This document shows positions 1,579 through 26,401 of a stretch of DNA of 64,000 nt, piece after piece. The notes beneath the pieces are model-generated. The model was given only the letters and a program-made list of their open reading frames with translations, was not told the DNA's origin and made no database searches. Every line of letters begins with the position of its first letter. The stretch's first letter is position 1. This stretch comes from an uncultured Gammaproteobacteria bacterium (lineage in GTDB: Bacteria > Patescibacteriota > Microgenomatia > Levybacterales > GWA1-39-11): positions 274,052-338,051 of the forward strand of contig CAYMYC010000001.1 of the NCBI GenBank assembly GCA_964394645.1, given 5' to 3'. The position numbers were made by a program, and so were the translations under genes.

Positions 1579-3900
1579 ATGATACAATCAGTATTAATTA
1601 TGACGAAATTACCTTTTAAAGTATCCGCTAGAACAGCAAGGCTAATTGGTCGAGAGAACGTCAGTAACGCTGATGGAGCACTAATAGAACTTATTAAGAA
1701 CGCCTATGACGCAGATGCTACTCAGGTATCTGTGATATTTGATGGTGATGATTTGTTTATTATCGATAATGGTCACGGTATGACGGAAGAAATAATTCGG
1801 AATTCATGGATGACCATTGGAACCAATAATAAAGAGCTTGAGCCTTACTCACCTGATCATAGAATAAAGGCAGGGGCAAAAGGGATTGGCAGATTTGCGC
1901 TAGATAGACTTGGTAAAACAGTTGAGATGTTCACTCTACCGAAAGGACAAACTACAGGATTTTTGTGGACTGTAGATTGGAGTGATTTTGAAAAAAGTAG
2001 TGCAACAGTAAATGATGTCAATGCAAATCTAGAAGAGATAGTAAAGCTAAACATAGATCAAAAATTGCCTCATAAAATACTGGATGATCGAAAAATTAAG
2101 CTGAAATTTCCAGACGGTGGAACAATACTTAAGATATCAGCATTACGAGACCCGTGGACAAAAGAAGCGCTTTATGGGCTTTTCAGAGGGATGGAATCAT
2201 TAGTTCCTGTTTTAGAAGATGATTCTTTTTCTATAATTTTACTTTCATCTAGGTATAACGATGAATTTGGAGCAGTTAAGCCTTTAATAAATGATGATTA
2301 TGACTATAAAATGCAGGCAAAATATGACTCAGAAATTGGTAAGGTCTCAATAAAAATTGAACGAAACGAATTTGATTTATCTCAAATCGAAAAGAAATTT
2401 GCGGGTGTGTTTGATAATCCTTTAATGAAGGACTTTCCTTATGACTTAACTACTTTCAAAAAAGGTGAATTTACACAGATTTATACTACACAGGAAATAA
2501 TGAAAGGATCCGAAGATTTAAGTACTCCTTTAAAGATGATAGGAGATTTCATTTTCACGCTTTCTTTTGCAAAAAACACATCTCCAGAAAAAGACTCTGG
2601 AAAGTATCCGTATAAAAACGCGAACTATAAACTGAGAAGCGATTGGTTGAAAAAATTTGGAGGAATAAAAATATATAGAGATAACTTTAGGGTTAGACCA
2701 TATGGGGAATCTGGGGAAGATTGGCTAAAATTAGGAGAAAGGGCTGCTCAAAGTCCAGCTGGTCCCGGTCAAGGTCTAGGAGGGTACAAAATTAGACCAA
2801 ACCAAGTCGTAGGATCAATTGCCATATCACGCATACACAATAAGGGGTTAGAAGATAAATCAAGCAGAGAAGGGATTGTTGAAAATGAAGTATTTAATGC
2901 GTTCAAAGAACTGATTTTGAAAATAATTTCAGTATTAGAAAAAGATCGCAATACTATTTTTGTCTCCTTTTCTAAACTTTACGAACAGACAAGTGAAAAT
3001 GAAAGGATAAAAAGAGAAGCTCAAGAAGCTGCTGCTAGAATAGCTGAAAAGATAAAAAAAGATAACGGAACTCCACCTTTCTTTGAAGATCCAGATTTAA
3101 AGGACGATGCTGCAAAAGTTACGAAGGCTTTTAAGGTTTTAGAAGATGAAATTGTAGAAAAAAACGAAGAGAATAAAATACTTAGAAGCTTAGCAAGTGC
3201 TGGATTAATAACAGCAGCCGTTACACATGAACTACGAGGACTAGAAAATGTACTACTAACAAGAAATGATGAACTGAGAGGGCTTATTAAGCCGTACATA
3301 AAAGATGATCAGCTTAAAGAGGTTAATGCTGCCTATAATCCCTTTGTTTTATTAGATGAAATGAAGAAAACAGATACTGACCTTCATGAATGGATAAGTT
3401 ATGCCTTAACTCCACTTAAGAAAGATAAGCGAGATAAAAAAATAATAGTTTTGAGGAATTATTTTGAAGACTTGTATAGCATGTGGAAATATATACTAAA
3501 CGAAAGAAAAATATCTTTTGCTTGTGATAACTTTGATGAGAAATTTGCAATAACAGCATATCTAATAGATCTAGATACTATTTTTAACAATTTAATAATT
3601 AATTCAATAGAATCTTTTTCAAAAAAGAAAGATAGTCATGAAAGAAGTATCAAGATTTCATGTGTAAAAGATAAGGAATACTACAAAATAACGTACTCTG
3701 ATAATGGTATTGGACTTCACAGTACATATAGTAAAAACCCAAATGATATATTCGCTGCTCAAGAGACTACAAAAAAAGACGGTACTGGTATGGGTATGTA
3801 TTTGGTTAAAAGTGTTGTAGACGAAAATAAGGGAAAAATTAATTTATTGTCTCCAAAAGAAGGATTTTCTCTATCTATATCTATGCCTATTAAGGAATAA
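1579..3900 (+). CDS. dual GHKL-domain histidine-kinase-like ATPase (N-terminal Bergerat-fold ATPase plus C-terminal H-box and HATPase_c)
   Basis: N-terminal N-box ELIKNAYDADAT and G1-box DNGHGM. In the C-terminal half, an H-box-like THELRG after a coiled-coil region, then a second N/G1/G2 set (NLIINSIESF, DNGIGL, GTGMGMYL) typical of sensor histidine kinases. Confidence 0.6.
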   Translation: MIQSVLIMTKLPFKVSARTARLIGRENVSNADGALIELIKNAYDADATQVSVIFDGDDLFIIDNGHGMTEEIIRNSWMTIGTNNKELEPYSPDHRIKAGAKGIGRFALDRLGKTVEMFTLPKGQTTGFLWTVDWSDFEKSSATVNDVNANLEEIVKLNIDQKLPHKILDDRKIKLKFPDGGTILKISALRDPWTKEALYGLFRGMESLVPVLEDDSFSIILLSSRYNDEFGAVKPLINDDYDYKMQAKYDSEIGKVSIKIERNEFDLSQIEKKFAGVFDNPLMKDFPYDLTTFKKGEFTQIYTTQEIMKGSEDLSTPLKMIGDFIFTLSFAKNTSPEKDSGKYPYKNANYKLRSDWLKKFGGIKIYRDNFRVRPYGESGEDWLKLGERAAQSPAGPGQGLGGYKIRPNQVVGSIAISRIHNKGLEDKSSREGIVENEVFNAFKELILKIISVLEKDRNTIFVSFSKLYEQTSENERIKREAQEAAARIAEKIKKDNGTPPFFEDPDLKDDAAKVTKAFKVLEDEIVEKNEENKILRSLASAGLITAAVTHELRGLENVLLTRNDELRGLIKPYIKDDQLKEVNAAYNPFVLLDEMKKTDTDLHEWISYALTPLKKDKRDKKIIVLRNYFEDLYSMWKYILNERKISFACDNFDEKFAITAYLIDLDTIFNNLIINSIESFSKKKDSHERSIKISCVKDKEYYKITYSDNGIGLHSTYSKNPNDIFAAQETTKKDGTGMGMYLVKSVVDENKGKINLLSPKEGFSLSISMPIKE

Positions 3901-3903
3901 ATT

Positions 3904-4551
3904 ATGATGTACAAAATTTTTTATATTGATGAAGATAAAGCGGCAGTACACAGATTAACAAGATCTCTTGGCACTGATTTTGAAATTATAGAAGGCTTTT
4001 CGGATGGTATTACCCTTGAAACACTTACCCCCATATTAGACGAAAAGGACTTTGATTTTTTGCTAGTTGATTCAAACTTAAATGAGAAAAGTGGTTGCGG
4101 ATTTAACGGCGAAGATGTGATTGGGTATTTCACAAAGAAATTTCCTCACTTTCCTGTCATGCTCTTCACTAACTATGATGATCAGGTCGTATCAGAGATC
4201 GAAAATTTTGACATTAACAAAATTTACAGTAAACGAGAGTTGATAGAAGAGGAAGCGAAGAATGTATTTATAATGAGAATCAATAGAATTATTAATGAGT
4301 ATAAGCTATCAGTAGAAGCAGCTGAAAGAAAAATAGTAGAGTTAGTTGAAAAAAATAAATCGGGGAAAACATTAACAGCTATTGAAGAGCAGGAGCTCAT
4401 TCAGCTAGATGCATACCTGGATGAAGTACAGGATGCAGATGTCACCCGCATCCCAGAACAAATAAAAGCATCAAATGCAAATAAAATAGATGAGCTATTA
4501 AGTAAAACTGACAACTTAATTGAGAGACTTCAAAAGTATGAGAGTATTTAG
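3904..4551 (+). CDS. receiver (REC)-like domain protein with C-terminal coiled-coil extension
   Basis: Starts 4 nt after the kinase-like gene. The N-terminal ~120 aa have a response-regulator-like pattern (hydrophobic strand then acidic YIDEDK, a second strand ending LLVDSNL, VMLFTNYDD); the C-terminal ~90 aa are charged and helical. Confidence 0.45.
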   Translation: MMYKIFYIDEDKAAVHRLTRSLGTDFEIIEGFSDGITLETLTPILDEKDFDFLLVDSNLNEKSGCGFNGEDVIGYFTKKFPHFPVMLFTNYDDQVVSEIENFDINKIYSKRELIEEEAKNVFIMRINRIINEYKLSVEAAERKIVELVEKNKSGKTLTAIEEQELIQLDAYLDEVQDADVTRIPEQIKASNANKIDELLSKTDNLIERLQKYESI

Positions 4552-5179
4552 ATCTAAACATCCAAAACGAACTTATTCGGGTACTCCAAAAAAACATTAT
4601 TCTGAATACAGAGAAGAATTGAGAAGTGATTTTAACGGAAGGTGTGCATATACAGATTGCGTAGATGTATGGTGGGGGGATGGATTTCACGTTGATCATT
4701 TTGCTCCAAAAAAACCGGATATCGCTGATCCTGATAAACTCAAAAAATTTAAAGAAAGAGAACATTTATACACTAATCTTGTATACGCATGCCCTCAAGT
4801 TAACCGAGCAAAAAGCAATGATTGGGTTTCTGATGATCCAGATATAGCATTTCTGGCAGATAGAGGGTACTTAGACCCATGCGAGGTTGATTATAATGAT
4901 TACTTTGAAAGAACTGACGCAGGTGGAATTGTCCCAAAGGAAAATCCTGTAGCAAAATATATGTGGGTTACATTAAAACTGTACCTAAAAAGGTATGAAT
5001 TGTATTGGCGGATAGAACAAATTACTTTAAGACTGCAAAGACTAATTAAGTTAAGAGGGAATATATCTCTTCCAGCCCCTATTAAGGCAGAGATTGACGG
5101 AAGCATAGCAGACTTAACAGAGGAATATATGAGATACCTAAATTACTTAAATGTAAACTATTTACAGTTAGTCAGATAG
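4520..5179 (+). CDS. HNH endonuclease domain protein
   Basis: HNH signature: CAYTDC ... HVDHFAPK ... YACPQVNRAKSND (His-Asn-His metal finger). The ORF overlaps the preceding REC-like ORF by 32 nt in a different frame. Confidence 0.55.
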   Translation: MRDFKSMRVFRSKHPKRTYSGTPKKHYSEYREELRSDFNGRCAYTDCVDVWWGDGFHVDHFAPKKPDIADPDKLKKFKEREHLYTNLVYACPQVNRAKSNDWVSDDPDIAFLADRGYLDPCEVDYNDYFERTDAGGIVPKENPVAKYMWVTLKLYLKRYELYWRIEQITLRLQRLIKLRGNISLPAPIKAEIDGSIADLTEEYMRYLNYLNVNYLQLVR

Positions 5180-5264
5180 ACTACCTCTATACACATTTTG
5201 CCTGCAGACAGGACATAACAATTGTTATACAATTTTACTTAGTACCCTTAGTAGAGCTCTAAAA

Positions 5265-6557
5265 ATGAAAAAATCTAACACTGTCCTAGATAATGGCTGG
5301 AAAGTAAAAATTGGATTCTATCCCACTCCTGATAATTTGGTAGATCAATTTGCGCAATATACTTTCGACTTCTATAAAGATCATAATTCTAACAATGAAA
5401 TAAAATTACTTGATTTGTTTGCTGGTGATGGACGTTTAGGTTATTCTGTAAAGAATTACTTTTCTCAAAATAAATATACCACTAAGCGTACATATCTTGA
5501 AATACAACAAGATGAAATAAGGAAAATTATACAAAAGGAAAAAAAAGCAACAATTATCAATGTAAATGCTTTTGAATGGAGACCTAACGAGAAATTTGAC
5601 TTAGTTGTTTCTAATCCCCCATATTTAATTTTGAATTCCCCTGAAGCAAAAAAACTAGGATTTGACTGGGAGTATGTTAAAAAACATGGTAGAAATCTAT
5701 ATACATTGGGTATTATAAAAGCTTTGGAGTTATGTAAAGAAGGTGGAATAGTAGCTGTAATATCTCCTTTTAGTTGGTTGCGAGGAGAATTTAGTCATGT
5801 ATTTAGAAAAGAGATAAATTCTTTATGCAAGGAGGTCTTAATTCGAGCTAACGATCATAGAACCATTTTTAAAGGGGTAAATCAGGACATTGGAATACAA
5901 TTTTTTGTAAAGCGCACACAGATGGATACGTCTATTACTAAATGGATGTTTGGTTATAACGGATTTGAACCCCAAAAGATTCCATTCAAAAGAATGGATG
6001 AGTTGAATGGACTTAAAATCAAATTAGATTCACGTATTATGGTAGGACCTGTGGTTTGGAATAGAAATAAGCAATATCTATCTAAGAAACTCTCAGGTAC
6101 GACGTTAGTTATTTATGGAGGGAATATAACCCATAGTGGAAAATTAGATATAAAAGTAGAACGATATAAAGAAAAACAATACATTGCTAACTCTGCTTTA
6201 CCAAAAACCTCACTTTTTGAGTCTCCTCTAATTTTAATTCGAAGAGTTATGCGAGGGATTCCTGGAAATTGGCAGATTGATTCTTGTCTTATTGAGAAAC
6301 CATTCAAATGCACAGTAGAAAATCACGTTATTGTTATAGAAATTCCGAGTGGGAAAATAGATTCTTACAAGCATTTCTATCAGAAGCTAATGAGTAAAAT
6401 AAAAGAGTATTATTATTTCTCTGGAAGCCCTTCAATTAGTGGTAAAGTAGTTAAACGATTAATAAGTGAACTTGAAAATGAATATAACTATGAAGTTAAG
6501 AAGATATTTGAAAAAAACAATATGACGGATGCATCATCAATGGACTTATTAATATAG
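5265..6557 (+). CDS. N6-adenine DNA methyltransferase (amino-MTase with C-terminal extension)
   Basis: Motif I-like LDLFAGDG followed by motif IV VVSNPPY (order I then IV), plus a ~200-aa C-terminal domain that could act as a target-recognition domain. Confidence 0.6.
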   Translation: MKKSNTVLDNGWKVKIGFYPTPDNLVDQFAQYTFDFYKDHNSNNEIKLLDLFAGDGRLGYSVKNYFSQNKYTTKRTYLEIQQDEIRKIIQKEKKATIINVNAFEWRPNEKFDLVVSNPPYLILNSPEAKKLGFDWEYVKKHGRNLYTLGIIKALELCKEGGIVAVISPFSWLRGEFSHVFRKEINSLCKEVLIRANDHRTIFKGVNQDIGIQFFVKRTQMDTSITKWMFGYNGFEPQKIPFKRMDELNGLKIKLDSRIMVGPVVWNRNKQYLSKKLSGTTLVIYGGNITHSGKLDIKVERYKEKQYIANSALPKTSLFESPLILIRRVMRGIPGNWQIDSCLIEKPFKCTVENHVIVIEIPSGKIDSYKHFYQKLMSKIKEYYYFSGSPSISGKVVKRLISELENEYNYEVKKIFEKNNMTDASSMDLLI

Positions 6558-6858: not shown

Positions 6859-7017
6859 ATGAGTAAAAATTCAATAACATTAAAACAAGCCCGAAAACTC
6901 CTCGGAAAAATTGCAGAGAATATCTCAGACGAAGAACTAGAAAAAGAGATAAAAGTTGCAGAACTCCTCAAGGCTATTTATTTTAATACCGCTTTAGGTC
7001 AAAATAAAGGGAAATAA
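6859..7017 (+). CDS. small (52 aa) helical protein translationally coupled to the serine recombinase; possible recombination directionality factor or regulator
   Basis: ATG at 6859, and the stop TAA overlaps the recombinase ATG (TAATG). It is below the 60-aa cutoff of the ORF track. An inverted repeat CCAGCAA-N9-TTGCTGG (6845-6867) lies just upstream. Confidence 0.3.
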   Translation: MSKNSITLKQARKLLGKIAENISDEELEKEIKVAELLKAIYFNTALGQNKGK

Positions 7018-8573
7018 TGGAAAAGATTGCATCAACTATTCAAAAACTTAGAGCTGTCATTTATATTCGGGTTTCCGACCAGAGCCAGATTGATAACAAT
7101 AGTCTTGAAACTCAACTCAAGGCTTGTAATACTTTTGCAGAAAGTAACAGTTATGAAGTAGTCAAGGTATTTAGAGAAGAAGGTGTATCAGCAAAGCATA
7201 CCCATAATCGTCCTCAAATGCGTGAGCTTCTTGAATTTTGCACCTTAAAGAAAAATAGAGTTTCTGGAGTTATAGTCTACAAGATGGATAGATGGTCAAG
7301 AAACGTAGAGGAAGGACTCCTGGCAGAGTCTCTCCTTGCAAAATATGGTGTAGCAATTCTTCCAGCAACTGAAATAACAGAACAAAACCCAATAGGCAGA
7401 GCAGTAAGAACAATCTTAATGACAATGGGGCAGTTGGATAATGAATTAAAGGGTGCAAGAGTTAAGGACAATATGCAAGCAATGTTTCGTAAGGGCTTTT
7501 GGTGTTGGAAACCCCGTATGGGATACAAACGACCCTTCAAAACAAAAGAAGAAAATAAAGGTAAGCCCATGATATTTGATGGGAAGTTAAGTGAAATTAT
7601 TAGGGCATTATTTATAAAAGCGGCAGAAGCACCAGTTAGTAAAAAATACTTAGCTGACTATATAAATAAACTAGGATTTAAATCTGCATATGGTAAAGAA
7701 GCTGATGGAAGAACAGTATCAAGAATACTGAAAGACACTTTTTATTATGGATATATGTACGGCAAGAAATGGAATGAGTATGCGTGGGGAAAGCATAAAT
7801 CTTTAACAGATCAACCTACATGGGAAAGAGCTAGCTTAAATGTATTTGGGAGAAAAGGTAAATACAAACACCAAGATAGTGCGTTGTACGTATTAAAGGG
7901 GAGCTTAAAGTGTTCTAGTTGCGATAATCCATTAACTACGAGCAATCCAAGAGGAACAAGTAGAAATTACCTTTATTATGAATGTCATAACAGCCGTTGT
8001 GACAAGAAAATGAGAATAGGATTAGACGTAGCACATAGTGAGTTTGTTGAGATATTAAAATCAATTAGACCATCAGAACGAGTCTTAAGAATTTTCAGCC
8101 ATTTAGTTTTTACTGAATGGGATAAAAGTATTGCCGACAAAAAGCGTGAGGCAGATTTGCTAGACAGCCAAATAAAAAACTTGGAAGGAAAGTTAACCGC
8201 AATCGCAGAAAGTAACGCTAAAGGTATTCTCACAGACAAGGAAGCACAAGTAGGTGCTGAGAGTATTAGAAAAGATGTTACTATTTTCAGAATTGAGCGT
8301 GCCGATATTCGAATAGAACAATATAGTGAAGAGGCTGTTAGAAATTTCGTAGAAAACTTTTTAGTTCATTTGGATAAGTTGTGGATGCAAATCGAGTTGT
8401 CACACAAACAAGCGTTACAAAGTGAGATATTTCCTGATGGTTTAGTTGCCGAAAACAGAAAAATTCGAATTGTTAATTTAGCAAGTACCTTCAAGCTAAT
8501 TCAGACATTAGGAGATGAGAATGTTGATTTGGTGAGCCAAACGGGTTTGGAACCAGATAGGCCTTATAACTGA
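7017..8573 (+). CDS. large serine recombinase (resolvase/invertase catalytic domain plus recombinase and zinc-ribbon domains)
   Basis: N-terminal VIYIRVSDQSQ with the catalytic Ser in a resolvase-type motif, a mid recombinase domain, a Cys-rich zinc ribbon (CSSCDNPL ... YYECHNSRC) and a C-terminal coiled coil. Confidence 0.8.
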   Translation: MEKIASTIQKLRAVIYIRVSDQSQIDNNSLETQLKACNTFAESNSYEVVKVFREEGVSAKHTHNRPQMRELLEFCTLKKNRVSGVIVYKMDRWSRNVEEGLLAESLLAKYGVAILPATEITEQNPIGRAVRTILMTMGQLDNELKGARVKDNMQAMFRKGFWCWKPRMGYKRPFKTKEENKGKPMIFDGKLSEIIRALFIKAAEAPVSKKYLADYINKLGFKSAYGKEADGRTVSRILKDTFYYGYMYGKKWNEYAWGKHKSLTDQPTWERASLNVFGRKGKYKHQDSALYVLKGSLKCSSCDNPLTTSNPRGTSRNYLYYECHNSRCDKKMRIGLDVAHSEFVEILKSIRPSERVLRIFSHLVFTEWDKSIADKKREADLLDSQIKNLEGKLTAIAESNAKGILTDKEAQVGAESIRKDVTIFRIERADIRIEQYSEEAVRNFVENFLVHLDKLWMQIELSHKQALQSEIFPDGLVAENRKIRIVNLASTFKLIQTLGDENVDLVSQTGLEPDRPYN

Positions 8574-8740: not shown

Positions 8741-9313
8741 ATGGCAGAGGTAAAGACTCGTTTAACATTAAAGAAAATAAGGCTTGTCCTATTTACTCGT
8801 TCCTATGCGAACTATCGCGTATCTCAGGAGATAAAAAGGAAATATAAACTAGATAATAAATTAACACCTAAAGAATTGCGAATGAATTACTTCAAGAAAA
8901 GAGCAATACCGGAAATAGCAAGACTGTCCCATGCGCTAAATCTTGCCTACAACCCCTTATGGGGGTCATTACTTCTCAATAAAACTCCGCCACTTAATAA
9001 GAAAATGCCGGATAGTGAGAAAATAAAGGCATATCTTGCGATTGAACGTGAATTAATCCTACTTTCAGAAACAAAAAAGAACAAATCAAGCCAATTTTTT
9101 GATCCAGATTATGATCAGGAATTTGCGATACTTTCAGTTGCAATTGAAAGAGCTGTAGGAAATAAACTTATAGATATTGAGGACGATTCTGCATTTGGAC
9201 ATCAACAAGAAATCCTACAAAAACTATACTTAAGATGGTATTACAAAGTGGCGTGGAAGTATAAGCTCCCGACTACGAGAATAGTACCATTTGTAATTAG
9301 ATTAATTAGCTGA
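8741..9313 (+). CDS. hypothetical protein
   Basis: Intact ORF; basic N-terminus; no motif recognised. Confidence 0.3.
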   Translation: MAEVKTRLTLKKIRLVLFTRSYANYRVSQEIKRKYKLDNKLTPKELRMNYFKKRAIPEIARLSHALNLAYNPLWGSLLLNKTPPLNKKMPDSEKIKAYLAIERELILLSETKKNKSSQFFDPDYDQEFAILSVAIERAVGNKLIDIEDDSAFGHQQEILQKLYLRWYYKVAWKYKLPTTRIVPFVIRLIS

Positions 9314-9577
9314 TTCCCAGAATTCGTATTCTGAACCATCCTTAAAGTTTTTATCGTCAATCATTCTTTTAACCCTGACTAAACCTTTTTGCTCTAAGGA
9401 ATCAGTAACGTTTGTAGTCATTGATCTTGCTTCAGTTCCAGATATTTTTTCCCAAACACTAAAGACTTTCTGGTCGTCTTTCCAAACTCCCAGAAATACT
9501 TGAGTATTATCGCCGGTCTTTGGTTGAGGATGAATCTCAATCCTATATTCTTTATAATTTTCTTCTTTCAATTTCAC
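9302..9577 (-). CDS. hypothetical small protein (last gene of a five-gene minus-strand operon)
   Basis: 91-aa ORF, 10 nt downstream of the preceding minus-strand gene. Confidence 0.35.
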   Translation of the reverse strand: MKLKEENYKEYRIEIHPQPKTGDNTQVFLGVWKDDQKVFSVWEKISGTEARSMTTNVTDSLEQKGLVRVKRMIDDKNFKDGSEYEFWESAN

Positions 9578-9587
9578 ACACCTCCTT

Positions 9588-10505
9588 TCATCTCTCGACT
9601 CTCTTTATTTGATCACCTTCCTGCTTCCAAATACTCCCAAACTTAAAGAAGTTATCTGGTAATGGATTTTTCGCAAAAGGATTGTGGACTATTACAAAAT
9701 TGTCACCTATATGATTTTGATCTCTAGGGCTATTCAGAATATCATGAACAGAGTAAATAATAGAACTTATTCTTTCGAAGCTTGAATCTCTAAACATGAG
9801 CATTCTTACTTCACTTCCACTGATTTTGCTAACTTTTTCTCTTGCGGACCAAGTACTTTCATCTGGTGTAGGTCGGGATTTTTCTCCTCTAAGAAATAGA
9901 ACCTGATGACCGATGGCAAAAAGGCATTTAAGAATCAGAGGTATCTGTGCGTCAGGGTGATCTAGGGGGGAACGATCAATTGCAATTACGAACGGATCAT
10001 TTTCATTCACGCTATGGTTTTTCAAGTACGACAAGTACTTGTCATGCTTTTCTTTTAATCCTGCAGTTAGTCTTAAGAGCATCTCTTGCTCCGGAACATC
10101 CATCGCTTTTCCGTACTCAATATCCGGCACTTTATCGTGCCCGTTACCTTTTTTAACAGCAATGGCTTCTATCCACACGTTCTGATTGTTATACGGAATC
10201 TTAAAATCAGGACCTGAACTACTATGGACTCCTAATGCGTAACCTCTATTTAGTAATGTAGATCCCAAATGTAATTCCCAAGCCCGTTGGCTAAATTGTT
10301 TTTTAAATTCGTTAGAGAAATTTGAATCAGCGTAAGCTTCATATTGCTTCCAAAGCGATTCCAAATCTTCTCGAAATTCAGGACGAGTAGTCATGGTAGA
10401 TATGGCAACGTAGGAAGGGTCGTAATAGCTAAATTTCCTTTTTAACGTATCAAGTTCTATGCTATTAGAAGCGATGCCTAAATCTTCGTTGAATAATTTT
10501 GTCAT
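9588..10505 (-). CDS. hypothetical protein (operon gene 4)
   Basis: 305-aa ORF, 7 nt downstream of the HNH gene; no confident motif. A segment GPDFKI...VWIEAIAVKKG is weakly PD-(D/E)xK-like. Confidence 0.4.
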   Translation of the reverse strand: MTKLFNEDLGIASNSIELDTLKRKFSYYDPSYVAISTMTTRPEFREDLESLWKQYEAYADSNFSNEFKKQFSQRAWELHLGSTLLNRGYALGVHSSSGPDFKIPYNNQNVWIEAIAVKKGNGHDKVPDIEYGKAMDVPEQEMLLRLTAGLKEKHDKYLSYLKNHSVNENDPFVIAIDRSPLDHPDAQIPLILKCLFAIGHQVLFLRGEKSRPTPDESTWSAREKVSKISGSEVRMLMFRDSSFERISSIIYSVHDILNSPRDQNHIGDNFVIVHNPFAKNPLPDNFFKFGSIWKQEGDQIKRVER

Positions 10506-10512
10506 ATCGTAT

Positions 10513-11124
10513 TTAATCTACCTCCACCATGAACATTAGCCCATCATAAAAAACGTATACCCATAAACTTTTTGCTCCCATATCTTTTACAAACACTCTC
10601 CACATTCTAAACACACCGTCACCTCTTTCCACATAAAAATACTTCTGATAAAGCATATCTACAATTTGTTGATTGGGGATTATATTATTAATCTTAAATT
10701 TTGCATTAGAGTAGTCAATCTCAGGATTGAAGTGTTTAGTAAAACCTTTAGTTAGTCTGACGAGATATTCTTTTGTTTTCTTAACCGGATAAGTCATTCC
10801 GGTTTGTTGTACTTTTATGCCATTAATTTCGGTCTCAAGTGGGACAAGGCTTTTAATAGTAGCTTGCTTTAACTTTGGACTCCTTTTAAAAGATGACTCC
10901 ATTACTTTATTGCTCCAAATCCATGAGCCAGATTTTGACCTGTTAACTACTGAGGATGTAAAAACTCTAAAAGACTCGTCAATTAAACTAAACTTTTCGT
11001 TACATTTTTTACAACACCATACGGTAATAAGATTATTTGGTTTTGGGGATGGAAAAAGATTTTTCGGAGGAATATGGTCTTTTGTTAAATTTTCAGTAGC
11101 TCCGCATAGGTAACAGTTTTTCAT
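10513..11124 (-). CDS. HNH endonuclease family protein (operon gene 3)
   Basis: N-terminal CYLCG ... LTKDHIPPKNLF ... WCCKKCNEKFS, a CxxC...DH...CxxCN HNH zinc-finger arrangement. Confidence 0.5.
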   Translation of the reverse strand: MKNCYLCGATENLTKDHIPPKNLFPSPKPNNLITVWCCKKCNEKFSLIDESFRVFTSSVVNRSKSGSWIWSNKVMESSFKRSPKLKQATIKSLVPLETEINGIKVQQTGMTYPVKKTKEYLVRLTKGFTKHFNPEIDYSNAKFKINNIIPNQQIVDMLYQKYFYVERGDGVFRMWRVFVKDMGAKSLWVYVFYDGLMFMVEVD

Positions 11125-11130
11125 AATAAT

Positions 11131-11703
11131 TCATATACCCCAAATATACTTTAATCTCTTCTCAAAATTTGTTCTTAAAACCGTATTCAAAGGATCTTTC
11201 AAATCTTTTACGTATTGATTGAAATGACTTTGTATATCTTCTACTAATTTGCCTGGACATATTTTTATGTTTCCTTTCACTATTCCAATTCCGGATGAAA
11301 TCGAACAATCTAATATTATCTTTGTTCCTGTTAAACCAACGTGATACATACCACAACGAGCTTGTTCATAAACTACCTTTGTTAAAGCATCCCTATCTTT
11401 ATGACTCTTAAATTTTGGATATACCCATTTCAAACCTTCTGTAAAGAATGCTTCTGATTTTCCGGCCTTGTCATAACCATCCTTAAATTTTTGAATATTT
11501 TCAAAATATGCCATCATTATTGATAGCATGGCAAAGTCGGAATGACCAACTTTAGTTTTTATCTCTTTTAATACATCTAAAGTCCATCCCTGAATTTGTT
11601 CTTCAAAAAGCCTAATTTTATGCTTTTCAAAATCCCAATCATCCCATTTTGTAGGAAAGTCACTTCGCTTTGATTTTGATGAAATACTCAAATTGTTTTT
11701 CAT
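11131..11703 (-). CDS. hypothetical protein (operon gene 2)
   Basis: 190-aa ORF, 6 nt downstream of gene 1 and overlapping it by 4 nt at its own 5' end. Confidence 0.4.
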   Translation of the reverse strand: MKNNLSISSKSKRSDFPTKWDDWDFEKHKIRLFEEQIQGWTLDVLKEIKTKVGHSDFAMLSIMMAYFENIQKFKDGYDKAGKSEAFFTEGLKWVYPKFKSHKDRDALTKVVYEQARCGMYHVGLTGTKIILDCSISSGIGIVKGNIKICPGKLVEDIQSHFNQYVKDLKDPLNTVLRTNFEKRLKYIWGI

Positions 11704-12659
11704 ACTCTATTAATTAATGGCGTTTTAGTTATTGGAACAAATACAGGGATAAATTTAATGCCATTTTGATCTAATTGCACGTCTAATAAACATACACAAG
11801 AAATAAGATTGTTTAAATCGTATTTTTCAACAATTTTCTTTACGGAACTGCCCTCATTCATACTGGTAAATAACCCAGTTCCTATACCTGCAAACATGTT
11901 GTGGGCAATAACTAGTAAGTTATTTTTATCTTCAGAAAATTGAGATACTGATTTTTTAACAGCATCTTCAACAGCTTCTCTGTCTGAATAAGAGCCGCCT
12001 TCCCCGTTAATAAACTGGGGCTTAGATAGTCGCTCTTTCTTTAATTTGGCCCTTTCTGTTTCAGAAAAATGCCAAATATTCTTCCTACAATCAGTGCAAA
12101 CAGTTTTCTTAAGAATTTCATACACTTCCTCCGTTGTAAATTCAAAACTCGATAGTTTTATTTCTATCGAATGCGAACATTCGAGACAGGGAATTTCCGC
12201 TTTACACTCCGGCCAACTTTCAGTAATTACTAAAGTTTGCTTTAGCTTTTCAAGATATAAATTGTCTATTTTTTTTGAAACTTCACCCCTCCAGGAGGGA
12301 GATTTGACTTCGGAGTACCATTCTTCAGAGACCTGATCATCAAAGGCAAAATCATTTTTCTTTGTTCTATTGCCGTATGGTTCAAATTTAGTTATATTAC
12401 ACCCTTTTATTTTTCCGAAATAATATAGAGCCTTGTATTCTCCGAGTAGTTCATCTCTCTGTTTCTCAGAGTTGACGCGTGATTTATTTGATTCGTACCA
12501 CGTGGGGTTTAGAGAGTTTACATAAGACAGCCATTGTTCCATTTCTTGATTCCATTCTGGACTATGACCAAAATCGTCAGTGTATTCATGAGAACCAAAC
12601 AAATCCACAAAAAGTGGTACATTTTGTTTGACTAATTCTTTTATGTATTTCAGGCTCAT
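11700..12659 (-). CDS. hypothetical Cys-cluster protein (operon gene 1)
   Basis: 319-aa ORF with CxxC-type pairs (CKAEIPCLECSH, CTDCRKN) suggesting a zinc ribbon; no catalytic motif recognised. Confidence 0.4.
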   Translation of the reverse strand: MSLKYIKELVKQNVPLFVDLFGSHEYTDDFGHSPEWNQEMEQWLSYVNSLNPTWYESNKSRVNSEKQRDELLGEYKALYYFGKIKGCNITKFEPYGNRTKKNDFAFDDQVSEEWYSEVKSPSWRGEVSKKIDNLYLEKLKQTLVITESWPECKAEIPCLECSHSIEIKLSSFEFTTEEVYEILKKTVCTDCRKNIWHFSETERAKLKKERLSKPQFINGEGGSYSDREAVEDAVKKSVSQFSEDKNNLLVIAHNMFAGIGTGLFTSMNEGSSVKKIVEKYDLNNLISCVCLLDVQLDQNGIKFIPVFVPITKTPLINRV

Positions 12660-12728
12660 GTTTTAGCTTTTCTTTTTGCATTCGAATTATATTACAATAC
12701 GAGGGTAGAAAGCTAGAATTATAGGATT

Positions 12729-13463
12729 ATGAAAAAGGATTATCTTGAAGAAAAGAAAAAGAGATTGGCACAGAAAATCAAGGTACTTATTAATAGACCT
12801 GCATTTCAAAAGGAAATTCATGATCTGAGAATAAAATGGAAAATCCCGACCGATGGTATTAAGAATGAGGAAGATAACCAGAATTGGAATATGCAGCTTG
12901 GTATAGATACGGACGAGTACTATACAAAGAACTGGCCGAAAGAAAGGGCTGAGATCATAAAGCTAAGAAAAGAAGGAAAATTTAGAGAAGCAGACAACTT
13001 GAAAAAACAGATTAATGTGGACGCACCGATAAATGCTTTCAGTGAAGATATATGGATCGTTGTGAGGAAATACAGACTTTCTCCCAGATGGCACAATGGA
13101 ATCCGCCGCTACCTACTATTTAATGATCCAAAAAATATGCAAATACCAGCAGGCATTACAGTCGCAATGAATTGGGATAACGGTATAAAACGGATTTCCC
13201 TTGAGATTGACGACGACACTACTCTTAATGATCTAAAGCATGTTTGGAAATGGGCAAGAAAAATGCGTAAAGGTAGATTGTCCGATAAATTCCAACCAAT
13301 TCCTAATTTTGATAGAGATAAAAGGGCTTATGAACTTGAATTAGAAGGAAGAACCGAAAAAGAAATCGGAGATACAATACAAGAGGAATTTGGAGATAGC
13401 CTTGATTACAACGAACTTAAAATTGTAATAAAACGCTACAAAAAACGCCTCAACATCAATTGA
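12729..13463 (+). CDS. hypothetical protein
   Basis: 244-aa charged ORF between the minus-strand operon and the ParB-methyltransferase gene. Confidence 0.35.
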   Translation: MKKDYLEEKKKRLAQKIKVLINRPAFQKEIHDLRIKWKIPTDGIKNEEDNQNWNMQLGIDTDEYYTKNWPKERAEIIKLRKEGKFREADNLKKQINVDAPINAFSEDIWIVVRKYRLSPRWHNGIRRYLLFNDPKNMQIPAGITVAMNWDNGIKRISLEIDDDTTLNDLKHVWKWARKMRKGRLSDKFQPIPNFDRDKRAYELELEGRTEKEIGDTIQEEFGDSLDYNELKIVIKRYKKRLNIN

Positions 13464-13512
13464 GCTTAATTGATGTTTATACATCTGTTCTCTACCTTCA
13501 TATACTCTTCTT

Positions 13513-14847
13513 ATGTTCACAGAAAAACAAAACCTAAATGTAGTTTATGTTCCAATAACAGACCTTCTTCCCGCAACATATAATCCACGCAAGTGGAATG
13601 AAGAAGCAATAGCTCAACTCACAGAAAGCATGAAGCGCTTCGGGTTAGTTGACCCAATTGTTGTTAATGGTGCTCCCGAAAGAAAGAATATAGTAATAGG
13701 CGGTCATTTCAGGGTTAAGGTTGCAAAAGATTTGGGATATAAAGAAATTCCAGTTGTATACATAAATATCCCAGATTTAGAAAAGGAAAAAGAGTTGAAC
13801 CTTCGTCTTAATAAAAATGTAGGAGATTGGGACTGGAGTCTTCTATCAGAATTTGGAGAAACAATGCTAGCGGATGTTGGATTCTCAAGCGAACAACTTG
13901 ACGATATTTTTGACATTGAAGATACTCCTGAGCAGTTTGACCTTCAAAAAGAACTTGAGAAATTAGATATAACGCAAATTGAAATTCAAAAGGGAGACGT
14001 ATGGCAACTTGGTGAAAGTAAGCTCATGTGCGGAGACTCCACCATAGAAGATGATGTCCTTAAATTAATGAGCGACGAAAAAGCCAGCATGTGCTTCACA
14101 GACCCGCCCTACATTTTGGACTACCTCAACGGCAAGAAAAAACATGGAAAAGCAACCGAAGGTTTTGGTGCAAAGCGTGATAGGAGATATCTTGAGACAG
14201 ATGTACTACCTCCTGATTTTACTGAAAAATGGATGGCAAATATAGCTAAAGTGCAGGAAGAAAGTTTCTCAATAATTGTTTATGAGAATTGGAAGAACCT
14301 AAGAATCATATGGGGAGAGATGGAAAAGTATTGGAAGTTAAAGAACATGATAGTCTGGCATCTTCCAAACAGGAACCAAGGATTTGCTGCAAAGTATAAG
14401 TTCTTCTCAAAACATGATATCGCAATGGTTGGAGCTTCTCCCAATGCAGATGTTGAATACAATAACGAACTAGAAACAGACGGACTTCAAGAAGAATACG
14501 AAACAGCCCTATATGCAATTTCCGGCAAACCCCAATGGGAAGGATATCAGAAAGGCAAAAAGATACAACCTACTGATTTTATTGAATACGTTGCATCAGA
14601 TGAAAAACATTCTGGGCAAGGCGTAATCTTTGGAACAAAACCCATTGAAATTCTCATCCCATACATAAAAGTGCTTACAAAACGTGGAGATTTAATAATA
14701 GAGCCGTTCGGTGGTAGTGGTTCGACACTAATTGCTGCAACCAAAATGAAACGCAGATGCAACATTATGGAAAAATCCCCTGTTTATGCTGAAGTAATTA
14801 AAAAACGTTGGGAAAAGTTAACCAGACAGAAAGGAGTCAAGATATGA
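13513..14847 (+). CDS. ParB-like nuclease domain fused to a DNA methyltransferase (phage-type ParB-MTase)
   Basis: N-terminal ParB-N-like segment (VVYVPITDLLPATYNPRKW ... GGHFRVKVAKDLGYKEIP). Methyltransferase motif IV CFTDPPY precedes the motif I-like EPFGGSGSTLIAA (beta-class order). Confidence 0.8.
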   Translation: MFTEKQNLNVVYVPITDLLPATYNPRKWNEEAIAQLTESMKRFGLVDPIVVNGAPERKNIVIGGHFRVKVAKDLGYKEIPVVYINIPDLEKEKELNLRLNKNVGDWDWSLLSEFGETMLADVGFSSEQLDDIFDIEDTPEQFDLQKELEKLDITQIEIQKGDVWQLGESKLMCGDSTIEDDVLKLMSDEKASMCFTDPPYILDYLNGKKKHGKATEGFGAKRDRRYLETDVLPPDFTEKWMANIAKVQEESFSIIVYENWKNLRIIWGEMEKYWKLKNMIVWHLPNRNQGFAAKYKFFSKHDIAMVGASPNADVEYNNELETDGLQEEYETALYAISGKPQWEGYQKGKKIQPTDFIEYVASDEKHSGQGVIFGTKPIEILIPYIKVLTKRGDLIIEPFGGSGSTLIAATKMKRRCNIMEKSPVYAEVIKKRWEKLTRQKGVKI

Positions 14848-15248
14848 AGACTGACAAAAATAAGGAATTACTAATTGAACAGCTCAAGAAAACTCCCATT
14901 GTTCAAGTTTCTTGCGAGAAAGTCGGAATAGGACGCGCCACATTTTACCGCTGGAAACAGGAAGACCAAGACTTTGCAACAAGAGCAGATGAAGCGCTTG
15001 CTGAAGGATCATCTCTTGTGAACGATGTAGCTGAATCTCAATTAATGTCAGCAATTAGAGATAAGAATCTGACTGCCATAATTTTCTGGCTTAAACATCA
15101 TCACCCAAGCTATGCAACAAAGGTTGAGGTAACTGCAAGACTTAAAGCAGATAACGAAGTATTAACCCCAAAGCAAGAAGTATTAGTAACCAAAGCCTTA
15201 AAACTTGCTGCATTAATCCCAGAAACAAAGGAGGAAGAAAAGCAATGA
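14844..15248 (+). CDS. terS: terminase small subunit (HTH type)
   Basis: RBS AAGGAG sits 8 nt upstream of the ATG at 14844 (the ORF track starts at 14808). The ATGA overlaps the upstream stop, and ATGA at the 3' end overlaps the terL start. Contains an HTH-like GIGRATFYRWKQ. Confidence 0.6.
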   Translation: MKTDKNKELLIEQLKKTPIVQVSCEKVGIGRATFYRWKQEDQDFATRADEALAEGSSLVNDVAESQLMSAIRDKNLTAIIFWLKHHHPSYATKVEVTARLKADNEVLTPKQEVLVTKALKLAALIPETKEEEKQ

Positions 15249-16786
15249 CTACAGGTATAATTACTAACAAAGAGCTTGATGAAATCAAGAAGAAAAGATC
15301 AGTAAGGAGAATGCTTGCCAAAAACAGTCATCTCTGGTTCTTCTCAATTTATCTTGGACACTACATTAAATATCCATTTGCTCCATTTCATTCTGAAATG
15401 TTTGCCTTAACTGAAGACCAAGAATTACACCTCTCTGTACTTGTTGCCTTTCGAGGCTCTGGGAAATCAACTCTCATAACCCTTTCCTATCCTATTTGGG
15501 CAGTAGTTGGAGCACAGCAGAAAAAATTTATTCTCATCCTTTCTCAAACACAATCTCAAGCAAAACTCCATATGGCAAACATAAAAAGAGAGCTTGAGAG
15601 CAACGACCTTCTAAAAGGTGACATTGGACCATTTGAAGAAATAAGTGATGAATGGGGATCTAATTCTATTGTTATTTCAAAATATGGAGCAAGAATTACA
15701 GTTGCGTCAACTGAGCAAAGTATTCGTGGACTCAGACATGGTGAGCACAGACCAGACTTAGTCATTTGCGATGATGTGGAAGATTTGAATAGCGTCAAAA
15801 CTCGTGAGGGACGGGATAAAACATTTCAATGGTTAGTAGGAGAAGTACTACCGATCGGAGATCAAGAAACAAAAATTGTAATTGTTGGGAATCTTCTCCA
15901 TGAAGATAGCCTTTTAATGCGACTTAGAAAGGGAATTAAGAACGAAAAGCTTAATGGAAAATATTTTGCGTATCCTTTGCTTGATGTAAATAATACCATT
16001 GCTTGGCCTGCAAAGTTTAAAACCCTTGAGGATATTGAAAAACTAAGAACAACTATTGGAACAGACTCTGCTTGGTACAGGGAGTATCTTTTACGGATTA
16101 TTTCAGATGCTGACCGCTTGGTTCATCCGGAGTGGATTAAATATTATGATGAACTCCCTTCGGAGGAAGGAAACAATTTCAGGTATACGGCAACTGGAAT
16201 TGATCTTGCTATCTCGCAAAAAGAATCAGCAGACTGTACCGCTATGGTATCGGCAAAAGTTTTTGGATACCAAGATGAATTGAAAGTATACATACTTCCC
16301 CATCCAGTAAATGAAAGACTAAGTTTTCCAGAGACTTATGATATGGCAAAAGAATTATCCAAAGAACTTGGAAACGGTCAATATACAAAACTTTATATTG
16401 AAGACGTAGGTTATCAGGCCGCTCTCATTCAAGATTTAGAAAGAAATAATGTTCCAGCGGAAGGAGTAAAAGTTGCAGGTCAAGACAAACGATCACGACT
16501 TGCTTTAATAACCCATCTTATAAAACACGGCAAAGTTCTATTTCCATCGGGAAATCAAGCAGAAGAACTTATTATGCAATTAACTGGTTTTGGGATAGAA
16601 AAACATGATGATCTAGCGGATGCGTTTTCTCTTTTACTTCTTAAGGTGCTTGAAGAAGACGAGGGAGGGTTCGGGTTTTTCTTTATTGGTAGCGTTAATG
16701 ATTTCTATGATAGTAGAAATACCTCTTTATATGATGAATTCGGAGATAGATATGATAAACCTTTTAGCCTAGATAAAATCTTTTAA
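15245..16786 (+). CDS. terL: terminase large subunit
   Basis: Walker A AFRGSGKST, Walker B-like LVICDDVED, a C-terminal RNase-H-like nuclease region with conserved acidic residues (DDLADAF); 513 aa. Confidence 0.8.
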   Translation: MTTGIITNKELDEIKKKRSVRRMLAKNSHLWFFSIYLGHYIKYPFAPFHSEMFALTEDQELHLSVLVAFRGSGKSTLITLSYPIWAVVGAQQKKFILILSQTQSQAKLHMANIKRELESNDLLKGDIGPFEEISDEWGSNSIVISKYGARITVASTEQSIRGLRHGEHRPDLVICDDVEDLNSVKTREGRDKTFQWLVGEVLPIGDQETKIVIVGNLLHEDSLLMRLRKGIKNEKLNGKYFAYPLLDVNNTIAWPAKFKTLEDIEKLRTTIGTDSAWYREYLLRIISDADRLVHPEWIKYYDELPSEEGNNFRYTATGIDLAISQKESADCTAMVSAKVFGYQDELKVYILPHPVNERLSFPETYDMAKELSKELGNGQYTKLYIEDVGYQAALIQDLERNNVPAEGVKVAGQDKRSRLALITHLIKHGKVLFPSGNQAEELIMQLTGFGIEKHDDLADAFSLLLLKVLEEDEGGFGFFFIGSVNDFYDSRNTSLYDEFGDRYDKPFSLDKIF

Positions 16787-23240: not shown

Positions 23241-24572
23241 ATGGATTACAATACAAAGCCAGAGATACCTCTCGAATACTGCCTGTATGCCCGCAAATCA
23301 AGCGAATCTGATGAAAGGCAAACAATGTCAATTGACTCTCAGATCGAGGAGATGATGGCACTTGCCAAGCGGGACAAACTAAAGATAAAAGAAGTCAAAA
23401 AGGAGAGTCACTCAGCAAAGTCCTCAGGCACCCGCCCTGTATTTATGGAGCTTCTCCAAGAGGTAAGACAGAAGAAATTTAATGGAATTTTAACCTGGGC
23501 ACCAGATAGGTTAAGTAGGAATGCCGGAGACTTGGGATCAGTAGTTGATCTCATGGACCAGGGAAAACTCGTTAAGATTCAGACGTATTCTCAAAGTTTT
23601 TCAAACAGTCCGAATGAAAAGTTTTTGCTGATGATTTTATGCTCCCAAGCAAAGCTCGAAAATGATAATAAAGGATTGAATGTCCAGAGAGGAATGAGAG
23701 CAAAATGTCTGATGGGCTGGCGTCCCAGTATTGCTCCTGTTGGATATATTAATCAAGCTGGTGATCCGGCAACAACAGAATTGATAATTGTTGATCCTGA
23801 GCGAGAAAACTTTGTAAGACAAATGTTTGACAGAATGGCAAATCAAGGACAATCAGGAAGAACAATAAAGATGTGGCTTGATCGCATTGGTTTTGAAACA
23901 AGAGGAGGTAAAAGACTAGCACTGAGCAAAGTCTATGCAACTCTTAAAAATCCTTTCTACTACGGAGAGTTTGAATTTCCTGTTGGAAGTGGTACTTGGT
24001 ATAAAGGAAAGCATAAACCATTAATAACTAAAGAATTATTTGATAAAACGCAACTTCATCTTCAAATACAACCCGACAAAGGATACAAGAATAAACTATT
24101 TCCATTCAAGAAGATGTTCAAATGCGGAAAATGTGGCGGAGGCATAACGGCTGAAGAAAAATACAGAAAACTTCTAAATGGCAGAGTTGTAAAACATATC
24201 TACTATCATTGTGGAAGATCCCGTGATTTTGAATGTGATGAACCATACATTACAGAAGCAGACCTTGTTAAACAACTAATTGCAAAGATTGATGTTATTA
24301 GATTTAACTCATCAGGAATCACAAGAAAAATACAGGAGGATATTGAGCGATACCACAGACTTAAAACCCAGGTTCTTCATCAGGAATTTATAGATGGATA
24401 TTTACAAGAATTTAATAGAATTCCTGAAAATGGAAATGACAAGAATGAAATGATGAAAAACTATCTATTACATATTCTAAAAATAGGAACAGCAGAAGAG
24501 CGACTAGAAGCACTCTCTTTTATTAAAACAAAATTCATTCTATCTCAAAGAGAAATAATAATAGAAAAATAA
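23241..24572 (+). CDS. large serine recombinase
   Basis: N-terminal YCLYARKSSESDERQTMSIDSQ (catalytic Ser in a resolvase-like context), a recombinase domain and a zinc ribbon (CGKCGGG ... YYHCGRSRDFEC). Confidence 0.75.
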   Translation: MDYNTKPEIPLEYCLYARKSSESDERQTMSIDSQIEEMMALAKRDKLKIKEVKKESHSAKSSGTRPVFMELLQEVRQKKFNGILTWAPDRLSRNAGDLGSVVDLMDQGKLVKIQTYSQSFSNSPNEKFLLMILCSQAKLENDNKGLNVQRGMRAKCLMGWRPSIAPVGYINQAGDPATTELIIVDPERENFVRQMFDRMANQGQSGRTIKMWLDRIGFETRGGKRLALSKVYATLKNPFYYGEFEFPVGSGTWYKGKHKPLITKELFDKTQLHLQIQPDKGYKNKLFPFKKMFKCGKCGGGITAEEKYRKLLNGRVVKHIYYHCGRSRDFECDEPYITEADLVKQLIAKIDVIRFNSSGITRKIQEDIERYHRLKTQVLHQEFIDGYLQEFNRIPENGNDKNEMMKNYLLHILKIGTAEERLEALSFIKTKFILSQREIIIEK

Positions 24573-24834
24573 CCGCAACTTCTCCGATAGGTGTTTTTCT
24601 CGTGGGCTAAATGGTCTTTTTTGAGGCCTAAAAATTACTATTACAGGCTCTTTAAGCGATTATAGAACGACTTTGATTTAATTTAGCAAGCCTTATCAAC
24701 CCAAACGTAGATACCCAACGGGTCTGGTAGGAATACTATAAGATATGTGACCCGAGAGATACACTGTTCGAATCAAGTTTAGCCTTTTGGGACAGGTTAT
24801 TGAAGGCATTTCAATCTCTAACTGAACCTCAAAA

Positions 24835-25029: not shown

Positions 25030-25112
25030 ATATGTACAGTATTATATCAGTTCTAAAAGAAAAAAAATAATAGCCTCAAGCTAATATCAAGAACCTGCAT
25101 AGTAATAAATTA

Positions 25113-25259: not shown

Positions 25260-25261
25260 AA

Positions 25262-26370: not shown

Positions 26371-26401
26371 ACAGTGCTACAATTTGTAGACTTAAAATAG
26401 T

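Follow-up and report, generated by a model that had tools for sequence, protein, structure and literature searches.

PD-T7-5 and PD-T7-1 are single-gene anti-phage systems of the PD-(D/E)xK type (PMC10952713; PMC9519451), and both were recovered by functional selection from the E. coli pangenome (Vassallo et al. 2022, PMC9519451). Back-up effectors have also been described as embedded within restriction-modification (RM) operons, a pattern termed "guilt-by-embedding" (bioRxiv 10.1101/2024.01.29.577857). Further, the study that presents the RADS pipeline reports that serine recombinases mark defence loci and lists DUF5677 among the domains enriched near such recombinases and among the open reading frames (ORFs) chosen for testing; according to its abstract, the validated families are KAP NTPases and Schlafen proteins (bioRxiv 10.1101/2025.10.07.681051). 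Here, we compare with these systems a five-gene, minus-strand operon (g1 to g5; Table 1) in the genome of a member of the Patescibacteria (candidate phyla radiation, CPR), located in the window, i.e., the whole 64,000-nucleotide stretch that was analysed (positions 274,052 to 338,051 of contig CAYMYC010000001.1, assembly GCA_964394645.1). We consider it probable, if by no means certain, that this operon is a compact mosaic nuclease cassette directed against phages or other mobile elements and carried in a serine-recombinase-associated island. The best-supported arrangement of the cassette, as judged from homology and gene neighbourhoods, is a putative stable core formed by the adjacent g3 and g4, an exchangeable layer formed by g1 and g2, and a lineage-specific g5. 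A defence role is probable given the homology of g4 to PD-T7-5, the fusion of g1 relatives to RM proteins, and the neighbouring defence genes. Relatives of g2 and g3 occur in defence islands together with TIR, SIR2, HEPN_AbiU2, ApeA, KAP NTPase and AAA_15/21 genes, and the window itself has a further defence-type cluster upstream of the recombinase (Table 1).

The g4 protein matches the PADLOC PD-T7-5 model (PDLC04110) with an E-value of 1.5e-24 (84.7 bits), its residues 59-253 aligning to positions 42-234 of the 346-position profile, and further matches the PADLOC PD-T7-1 model (E=1.1e-15) and phrog_8571 (E=3.8e-30). Residues E77, G98-P99-D100, W111, E113 and K153 are invariant among seven sequences, including plasmid homologues of 25-30% identity. 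The lysine that canonically stands two residues past E113 is not conserved in the family, and K153 may substitute for it. Hence, g4 is predicted to encode a PD-(D/E)xK-type nuclease of the PD-T7-5 family with an intact motif and is a new, divergent member of a known family. An initial annotation of this DNA, made by a model from the sequence and its ORFs, had seen a weak PD-(D/E)xK-like patch in this gene, which is borne out by the model matches and the invariant E77, P99-D100 and E113; the same annotation took the HNH protein (g3) to be the only recognisable one of the five, which no longer holds because g4 clearly belongs to PD-T7-5/phrog_8571. With PD-T7-5, g4 shares the PD-(D/E)xK-type catalytic core and a distribution over mobile elements and defence islands. 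However, PD-T7-5 and the proteobacterial plasmid homologues of g4 are autonomous single genes, whereas each of the four CPR lineages sampled has g4 right after the g3 HNH gene, inside a multi-gene operon. The identity of g4 to the proteobacterial plasmid homologues examined is 25-30%, a figure that does not refer to E. coli PD-T7-5 itself. These plasmid relatives stand alone, with DarT, an AAA-ATPase/helicase pair that we take to be Gabija-like, or terL as neighbours (the last in a Skermanella phage-plasmid, where one g4 homologue lies upstream of terL).

The g3 protein matches Pfam HNH_5 (PF14279) at 33.1 bits, above the cut-off of 27.5 (E=5.5e-8). It is laid out as an HNH_5 domain in residues 1-50 (a Zn-Cys4 site, D16-H17, N31 and N42) followed by a conserved C-terminal domain of ~150 amino acids (aa) without assigned fold. 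C4, C7, H17, C38 and C41 are shared by all of 20 family members and D16, N31 and N42 are conserved in at least 90% of them, consistent with the HNH signature already recognised in the initial annotation (CYLCG ... DHIPP ... CCKKCN), so g3 is predicted to be an intact HNH_5 nuclease. Its family comprises 191 clusters, mostly from CPR, and g3 appears to be the hub gene of the cassette. The g3 HNH also shows weak PADLOC matches to PtuB (E=3.7e-3) and PDC-M01B (E=2e-4) and, like the HNH components of Septu (PtuA+PtuB) and of the PADLOC candidate PDC-M01, it is a small HNH nuclease in a multi-gene defence operon. Unlike Septu, no PtuA-like ATPase is present in or beside the g1-g5 operon; further, the matches are confined to the ~45-residue HNH core, the g3 C-terminal domain being unrelated, and a better PtuB-like HNH than g3 lies elsewhere in the window (Table 1). 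Distant relatives of g3 occur between a 371-aa Rx4H protein and a nucleotidyltransferase (locus L037; loci that we compared carry the prefix L) and paired with a DUF5677 protein inside a SIR2/HEPN_AbiU2/integrase island (L038). A distant g3-like HNH gene (229 aa) was also seen on the Pantoea dispersa plasmid NZ_CP074351.1 (L043, 3956-6046), directly followed by a gene for a DUF6602 protein and with a TIR-domain gene ~1.7 kb downstream of the two; a DUF6602 gene is present near the g1-g3-g4 locus of L001 as well (12488 onward).

The adjacency of g3 and g4 is kept in four CPR lineages, i.e., the window, L001/L002/L030, L032-34 and L035-36, with g3 being 69-88% and g4 62-76% identical, and what varies is the slot upstream of the pair. 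This slot holds g1 and g2 in the window; a 153-aa protein and g1 in L001/L002/L030 (a Patescibacteria metagenome-assembled genome whose g1 is 77% identical and whose locus likewise lies beside a large serine recombinase), where g2 and g5 are absent; a member of a 188-aa family and a 166-aa protein in L032-34 (Woesebacteria); and the 188-aa family alone in L035/36, with g1, g2 and g5 absent from both of the latter. The 188-aa family (Table 1) stands directly upstream of g3-g4 in L032 and L035 and, in L015, directly upstream of a g1-like gene and after a ResIII helicase, and is another mobile accessory module of the same network. DUF4145, to which this family shows a weak match, is reportedly RM-associated and is said to be assigned to the HEPN superfamily. 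Rx4H-type motifs recur among the slot proteins, namely ARCGMYH in g2, IRCNLFH in the 153-aa protein of L001 and SRDDYHH in the 188-aa family, and also in the 371-aa protein of L037 (LRHRIIH). Pairwise hhalign comparisons nevertheless detected no homology between g2 and the 188-aa family, g2 and DUF5677, g1 and DUF5677, or g1 and g4, and the interchangeable partners would at most be analogous slot-fillers. PADLOC gave no system-level matches for the 188-aa, 166-aa, 153-aa, 371-aa and DUF5677 partner proteins. PDB profile searches with g1, g2 (narrow and broad), g3, g4 and g5 returned nothing useful, only the HNH core reaching an E-value of ~0.07. Scans of viral contigs with single g3, g4 and g5 sequences and with the alignment A2 found nothing, and further viral-contig scans turned up only very distant relatives, whose neighbours differ.

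The g1-g5 genes are separated by -4, 6, 7 and 10 nucleotides in the direction of transcription, and the ORF list agrees exactly with the five consecutive minus-strand ORFs and the spacings first annotated. These are not chance ORFs because homologues exist for each of the five, and the region shows inverted GC and AT skew, as expected for minus-strand genes within a plus-strand block. From spacing only, we infer that g1-g5 are co-transcribed. Such an operon might, as the initial annotation proposed, represent one integrated, undescribed defence system. Its five components would work together, e.g., with sensing by g1 and g2, g3 and g4 acting as the effectors and regulation falling to g5. The operon-like spacing with translationally coupled g1 and g2, the intactness of all predicted active sites, and the apparent presence of the full set in at least two more related genomes speak for such a system; however, the synteny in the latter is uninformative because these are close relatives (g1 85-91% identical), and the full five-gene set recurs only in such near relatives. 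Specifically, relatives of g1, g2 and g5 seem to share two contigs (56,170 and 26,549 bp), and g1, g2 and g3 relatives fall on two short contigs (4,112 and 2,975 bp), the contigs being equated by their matching sizes in both cases. Elsewhere, the genes are found as subsets or with other partners: L001/L030 and L032-36 lack two and three of the genes, respectively, as described above; g2 occurs in DUF5677/TIR-like triads without g1, g3 and g4; g1 occurs with RM or NACHT genes or alone; and the plasmid relatives of g4 stand alone, PD-T7-5 being a single-gene system. A single system of five obligate parts is, accordingly, quite unlikely in our view, and its expected co-occurrence across divergent genomes was not found.

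In the favored mosaic cassette, g1 would be an exchangeable accessory module, i.e., a PD-(D/E)xK-like protein with an inserted zinc ribbon. The g1 protein, whose family comprises 33 clusters, has no Pfam, PADLOC or PDB matches. In a 26-member alignment, the invariant residues are KQRDELLGE..K, E70/E74, D103, D108 and E117-V-K119-SPSW, and the AlphaFold2 model (mean predicted local distance difference test, pLDDT, of 86.5) places around this motif a helix-strand-strand-strand-helix core in which E70/E74 lie on helix 65-84, D103 and D108 at strand 104-107, and E117-V-K119 on strand 113-119. That is, alignment and model together show the consecutive strands after an acidic helix that mark a PD-(D/E)xK motif, and the predicted core topology is that of PD-(D/E)xK proteins. 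Foldseek comparison of the model against the PDB gave weak, non-significant matches to ACE1/Cas4 and SfsA, which are PD-(D/E)xK proteins, and to a cap-snatching endonuclease. The zinc-ribbon-like cysteine pairs that had been noticed in gene 1 also hold up: the CxxC...CxxC ribbon (~residues 148-190) is an insertion that is conserved in the long family members and missing from shorter ones. It is followed by a C-terminal alpha/beta domain with PQFINGEG and NNLL motifs.

The neighbourhoods of g1 relatives connect this family to RM systems. The g1 domain forms the C-terminal third of ~1,150-aa fusions in L018 (3249-6728), L020 (5532-8945), L021 and L022 (170-3670). The N-terminal part of the L018 fusion, the only one scanned against Pfam, consists of type I RM HsdM and HsdS, and those of L020-22 are comparable to it in size; the L018 operon additionally encodes HsdR, two proteins of unknown function (193 and 232 aa) and a KAP-family NTPase. 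Where g1 is free-standing, the gene before it encodes a type ISP enzyme in L017 and a NACHT NTPase in L003, and in L015 it is preceded by a ResIII helicase and the 188-aa family. A tblastn search of plasmids with g1 gave no match. These fusions and neighbourhoods would fit the "guilt-by-embedding" pattern of RM back-up effectors. As in the PrrC paradigm of RM-embedded back-up nucleases, the g1 domain is fused to HsdM-HsdS or lies within or beside type I and type ISP RM operons; unlike that paradigm, the g1 of the window is free-standing with no adjoining type I RM system, and g1 is PD-(D/E)xK-like rather than an ABC-ATPase anticodon nuclease.

Alternatively, the cassette itself might be an RM system, with its nucleases as restriction endonucleases and the ParB-N6/N4 methyltransferase of the window as their cognate methylase. 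The methylase gene is located only ~850 bp from g1 and is transcribed divergently from it, HNH and PD-(D/E)xK are the usual folds of restriction endonucleases, and a physical tie to RM systems exists for g1 relatives. Nonetheless, we regard this alternative as very unlikely: the methylase belongs to a conserved phage-type block (244-aa protein, ParB-methyltransferase, helix-turn-helix protein, large terminase) and no methylase adjoins the g3-g4 loci L001 and L032-36 or the g3 loci L037 and L038. ParB-fused methylases are typical orphan phage methylases. The large terminase and the 244-aa protein recur together in other Patescibacteria contigs, where the methylase block occurs as a unit.

The second gene of the exchangeable layer, g2, belongs to a very large family. 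A word-indexed search found 29 clusters of g2 homologues and a full hidden Markov model search found 1,466 representative clusters, so that the superfamily comprises at least 1,466 clusters at 50% identity. Among 41 members, down to 27% identity, only E68, F87, R116, H121 and F180 are invariant, and the AlphaFold2 model (pLDDT 86.4) is mostly helical; in other words, g2 has the Rx4-6H motif conserved in an all-alpha domain, as HEPN proteins do. Like the HEPN proteins of defence and toxin-antitoxin systems (AbiV, AbiU2, ApeA, HEC-08, HEPN-MNT), g2 is small and all-alpha, has an invariant R-[NCS]-x3-H, the defining HEPN RNase signature, and is found in defence contexts; however, none of the sequence, profile and structure comparisons linked it significantly to a HEPN family. 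Its Foldseek matches to AbiV and Las1 in the PDB are not significant, a BFVD search returned just two uncharacterised phage proteins, no Pfam family matched the domain in ten diverse members scanned, and a scan of a genome collection with g2 found nothing. Hence, g2 is a candidate HEPN-like RNase or adaptor. Its assignment as a SLATT/2TM effector was considered and rejected, the weak matches (PADLOC 7e-4; NCBIfam 0.0099) being attributable to chance and SLATT_6 being matched by one of 41 members only (E=0.0099).

Homologues of g2 that are 50-56% identical, from Gottesmanbacteria and related contigs, are the middle gene of a triad (L007-L011; Table 1), in which a helix-turn-helix and DUF5677 protein (320-327 aa) overlaps the start of g2, and g2 is followed, after a gap of 3 nucleotides, by a TIR-containing protein or a TIR-less scaffold. 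In L010, the island around the triad also encodes ApeA_NTD1 and SEC-C proteins, and PADLOC v2 has no system that corresponds to the triad. The window repeats the layout of the triad, with g1 and the g3 HNH as the outer genes around g2 and the gap after g2 being 3-6 nucleotides over the two arrangements. Members of the g2 superfamily are also fused to a uracil-DNA-glycosylase (UDG)-superfamily domain or to an N-terminal multi-transmembrane region (P0268, P0238), which suggests that the g2 domain partners with diverse effector types. From these observations, it is possible to hypothesize, although only tentatively, that the g2 superfamily is the hub of a widespread and undescribed modular defence architecture whose triad has, in CPR, been grafted onto an obligate pair of HNH and PD-T7-5-like genes. 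Under this hypothesis, a partner of ~320 aa (DUF5677 or g1) may be translationally coupled to g2 and followed by a swappable effector. This role may fall to a TIR-like protein in L007 and to the HNH protein g3 in the window, and in P0268 and P0238 to the fused UDG-like or multi-transmembrane domains. If true, the operon of the window would be two new system types joined together rather than a loose island.

The last gene, g5, is preceded by an AAGGAGG Shine-Dalgarno sequence 5 nucleotides before its GTG start and shows coding-like positional GC. Its cluster has 10 members, the nine relatives being 85-99% identical, and no g5 homologue was found outside this cluster of close relatives in the 47 loci fetched or in viral contigs; family matches were sub-threshold only (MarR, 1.8e-3; MTaX1, 5e-3). 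Thus, g5 is a real, small gene that is restricted to its lineage and possibly encodes a regulator or antitoxin. An orphan plus-strand ORF of 190 aa (8741-9313) converges on g5, overlapping its 3' end by 12 nucleotides; it is the sole member of its own 90%-identity cluster and has no family matches.

A small lineage-specific protein at the end of an operon with several small nuclease genes is also what would be expected if the genes were toxin-antitoxin or addiction modules that stabilise the recombinase-borne island, with the nucleases as toxins, g5 and/or C-terminal domains providing the antitoxin or immunity function, and phage defence being incidental. The cassette is indeed carried on mobile islands, the position of the g3 HNH in L037 between an Rx4H protein and a nucleotidyltransferase recalls HEPN-MNT toxin-antitoxin pairs, and g2- and g3-like genes adjoin classical toxin-antitoxin genes in L038 and L042. 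However, no component matches a known antitoxin, and g5 cannot be a general antidote because it is absent from every g3-g4 locus beyond the immediate lineage. In addition, the experimental selection that recovered the g4 family was one for phage protection rather than for toxin-antitoxin modules (PMC9519451), and the fusion of g1 to HsdM-HsdS points to RM-linked immunity. We therefore consider the addiction-module explanation unlikely, noting that it overlaps with abortive-infection defence and hence is a rival only in part.

Returning to the mosaic defence cassette, we propose that g1-g5 would be co-transcribed from the divergent region upstream of g1 (Table 1). Upon infection, the g3 and g4 DNases would attack the invading DNA, as presumed for PD-T7-5, and g1 and g2 would sense the infection or gate the response, or else supply a second nuclease or RNase activity, like RM-embedded back-up nucleases such as PrrC. 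Several points weigh against the cassette reading and keep our confidence in it at a limited level. The roles given here to g1-g5 and to their CPR homologues are predictions, the homology to PD-T7-5 spans only ~195 of the 305 g4 residues, and the mode of action of PD-T7-5 itself is presumed. Toxin-antitoxin and addiction modules are just as typically made of stacked nuclease genes. A scan for consensus promoters and terminators in the cassette was uninformative, in that it gave about the same counts as shuffled sequence and did not bring up a convincing promoter on the minus strand. Because CPR genomes are compact, close spacing by itself says little about functional coupling. Finally, the neighbourhoods compared number only about a dozen independent loci, and the terms "conserved pair" and "exchangeable slot" are, for this reason, not to be read as statistics. 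Overall, we regard the operon as nuclease-based defence cargo in an island and not as a categorically new mechanism.

Table 1. Positions of the operon genes, of related gene arrangements in other loci, and of neighbouring features in the window. Positions are those of the window unless a locus is named.
Feature	Position	Strand	Description
g1	11700-12659	minus	319-aa ORF
g2	11131-11703	minus	190-aa ORF; start overlaps g1 stop by 4 nucleotides
g3	10513-11124	minus	203-aa ORF
g4	9588-10505	minus	305-aa ORF
g5	9302-9577	minus	91-aa ORF; GTG start
Presumed operon promoter region	12660-12728		69 bp separating g1 from the divergently transcribed 244-aa plus-strand gene; presumed from position only
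DUF5677-g2-TIR-like triad	L007 5025-8082; L010/L011 5042-7872		g2 homologue of 188 aa; 503-aa TIR protein or 433-aa TIR-less scaffold
188-aa family with SRDDYHH	L032 3919-4485; L035 4430-4996; L015 2596-3174		Weak match to DUF4145 (E=5e-3)
Large serine recombinase	7017-8573	plus	Resolvase, Recombinase and Zn_ribbon_recom domains; flanks the cassette, not in the operon
Phage-type block	12729-16786		244-aa protein of unknown function; ParB-N and N6/N4 methylase (13513-14847); HTH_Tnp_1_2 protein; Terminase_6 large subunit
Large terminase (TerL)	15245-16786		Terminase_6
773-aa protein	in 1579-6557		Two GHKL ATPase domains; PADLOC type II restriction endonuclease matches (E=4e-10)
215-aa protein	in 1579-6557		Response-regulator-like
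219-aa PtuB-like HNH	4520-5179		E=2.4e-11
Eco57I-type methylase	in 1579-6557		MTase_II (E=2e-22)

The cassette is flanked by the large serine recombinase on one side and the phage-type block on the other (Table 1), in agreement with its first description as lying between integrase and packaging genes. It was also placed inside a phage-like element, which is correct in that the TerL block is present (its HTH_Tnp_1_2 protein may be the small terminase), but the phage part comprises only four genes, and the element is a remnant of ~10 kb in which portal, capsid and tail genes are absent and after which cellular genes follow (OB-fold, MarR, MFS, K+ channel). This location, together with the PHROG match of g4, which implies that relatives occur in phages, and the g4 homologue next to terL in the Skermanella phage-plasmid, could suggest that the five are ordinary phage accessory genes, with the HNH being a terminase-associated packaging nuclease or homing endonuclease, as the initial annotation had offered as an alternative, and the others being replication or recombination helpers. 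We consider this extremely unlikely. In particular, g3 and TerL are encoded on opposite strands and are ~4 kb apart, and no terminase is found near the g3 homologues in the loci examined (L001, L032-L038). A tblastn search of 50,697 phage genomes with g4 gave no match, the relatives seen in viral-contig scans are very distant and have other neighbours, and the "prophage" of the window lacks the structural genes named above. The initial annotation's broader idea, that the position next to the integrase holds defence-type cargo, fared better, being strengthened by the g4 family, the RM links of g1 and the islands that contain g2 and g3 relatives, although not in the form of one five-component system.

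The association with a recombinase is shared with the loci of the RADS study: both the cassette of the window and that of L001 are directly beside a large serine recombinase, and DUF5677, which partners g2 and g3 in other loci, is one of the domains enriched in that study. The g1-g5 families themselves are not described there. An imperfect inverted repeat of 18 nucleotides (6749-6766/16974-16991; 16 of 18 complementary) encloses ~10.2 kb, its arms lying a short way ahead of the recombinase and past TerL, and was considered as the ends of the element; by our estimate, such a repeat is expected by chance in 11 kb of AT-rich DNA, and it was not used.

Two other regions of the window were also observed to carry defence-type or mobile genes. 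Upstream of the recombinase lies a second defence-type cluster (1579-6557; Table 1), which could represent an atypical RM system or one akin to Septu. The other region (23241-27979), ~7 kb past the first island, may be a further mobile or defence island; it begins with a second large serine recombinase (23241-24572), and a PIF1/RecD-like helicase comes after it (26402-27979; PADLOC PDC-S68 and typeIV_RecD, ~1e-18).

In conclusion, no description of the g3-g4 pairing, the g1 family, the g2 superfamily or the DUF5677-g2-TIR-like triad was found in PADLOC v2, Pfam, NCBIfam or the literature searched, and the defence systems of Patescibacteria are poorly explored. A five-gene operon with four predicted nucleases is a large investment for these organisms because CPR genomes are tiny. 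If the five genes are merely co-located and independent, the locus would be an ordinary defence islet. Under the cassette model that we favor, however, the HNH and PD-T7-5-like pair may show how a single-gene nuclease defence turns partner-dependent, the PD-(D/E)xK/zinc-ribbon module of g1 is a candidate RM back-up effector, g2 represents a very large, unannotated Rx4H family with TIR, HNH, UDG and membrane partners, and g5 could be a regulator. If true, the model would provide new families for PADLOC and DefenseFinder and better annotation of CPR and metagenomic islands.

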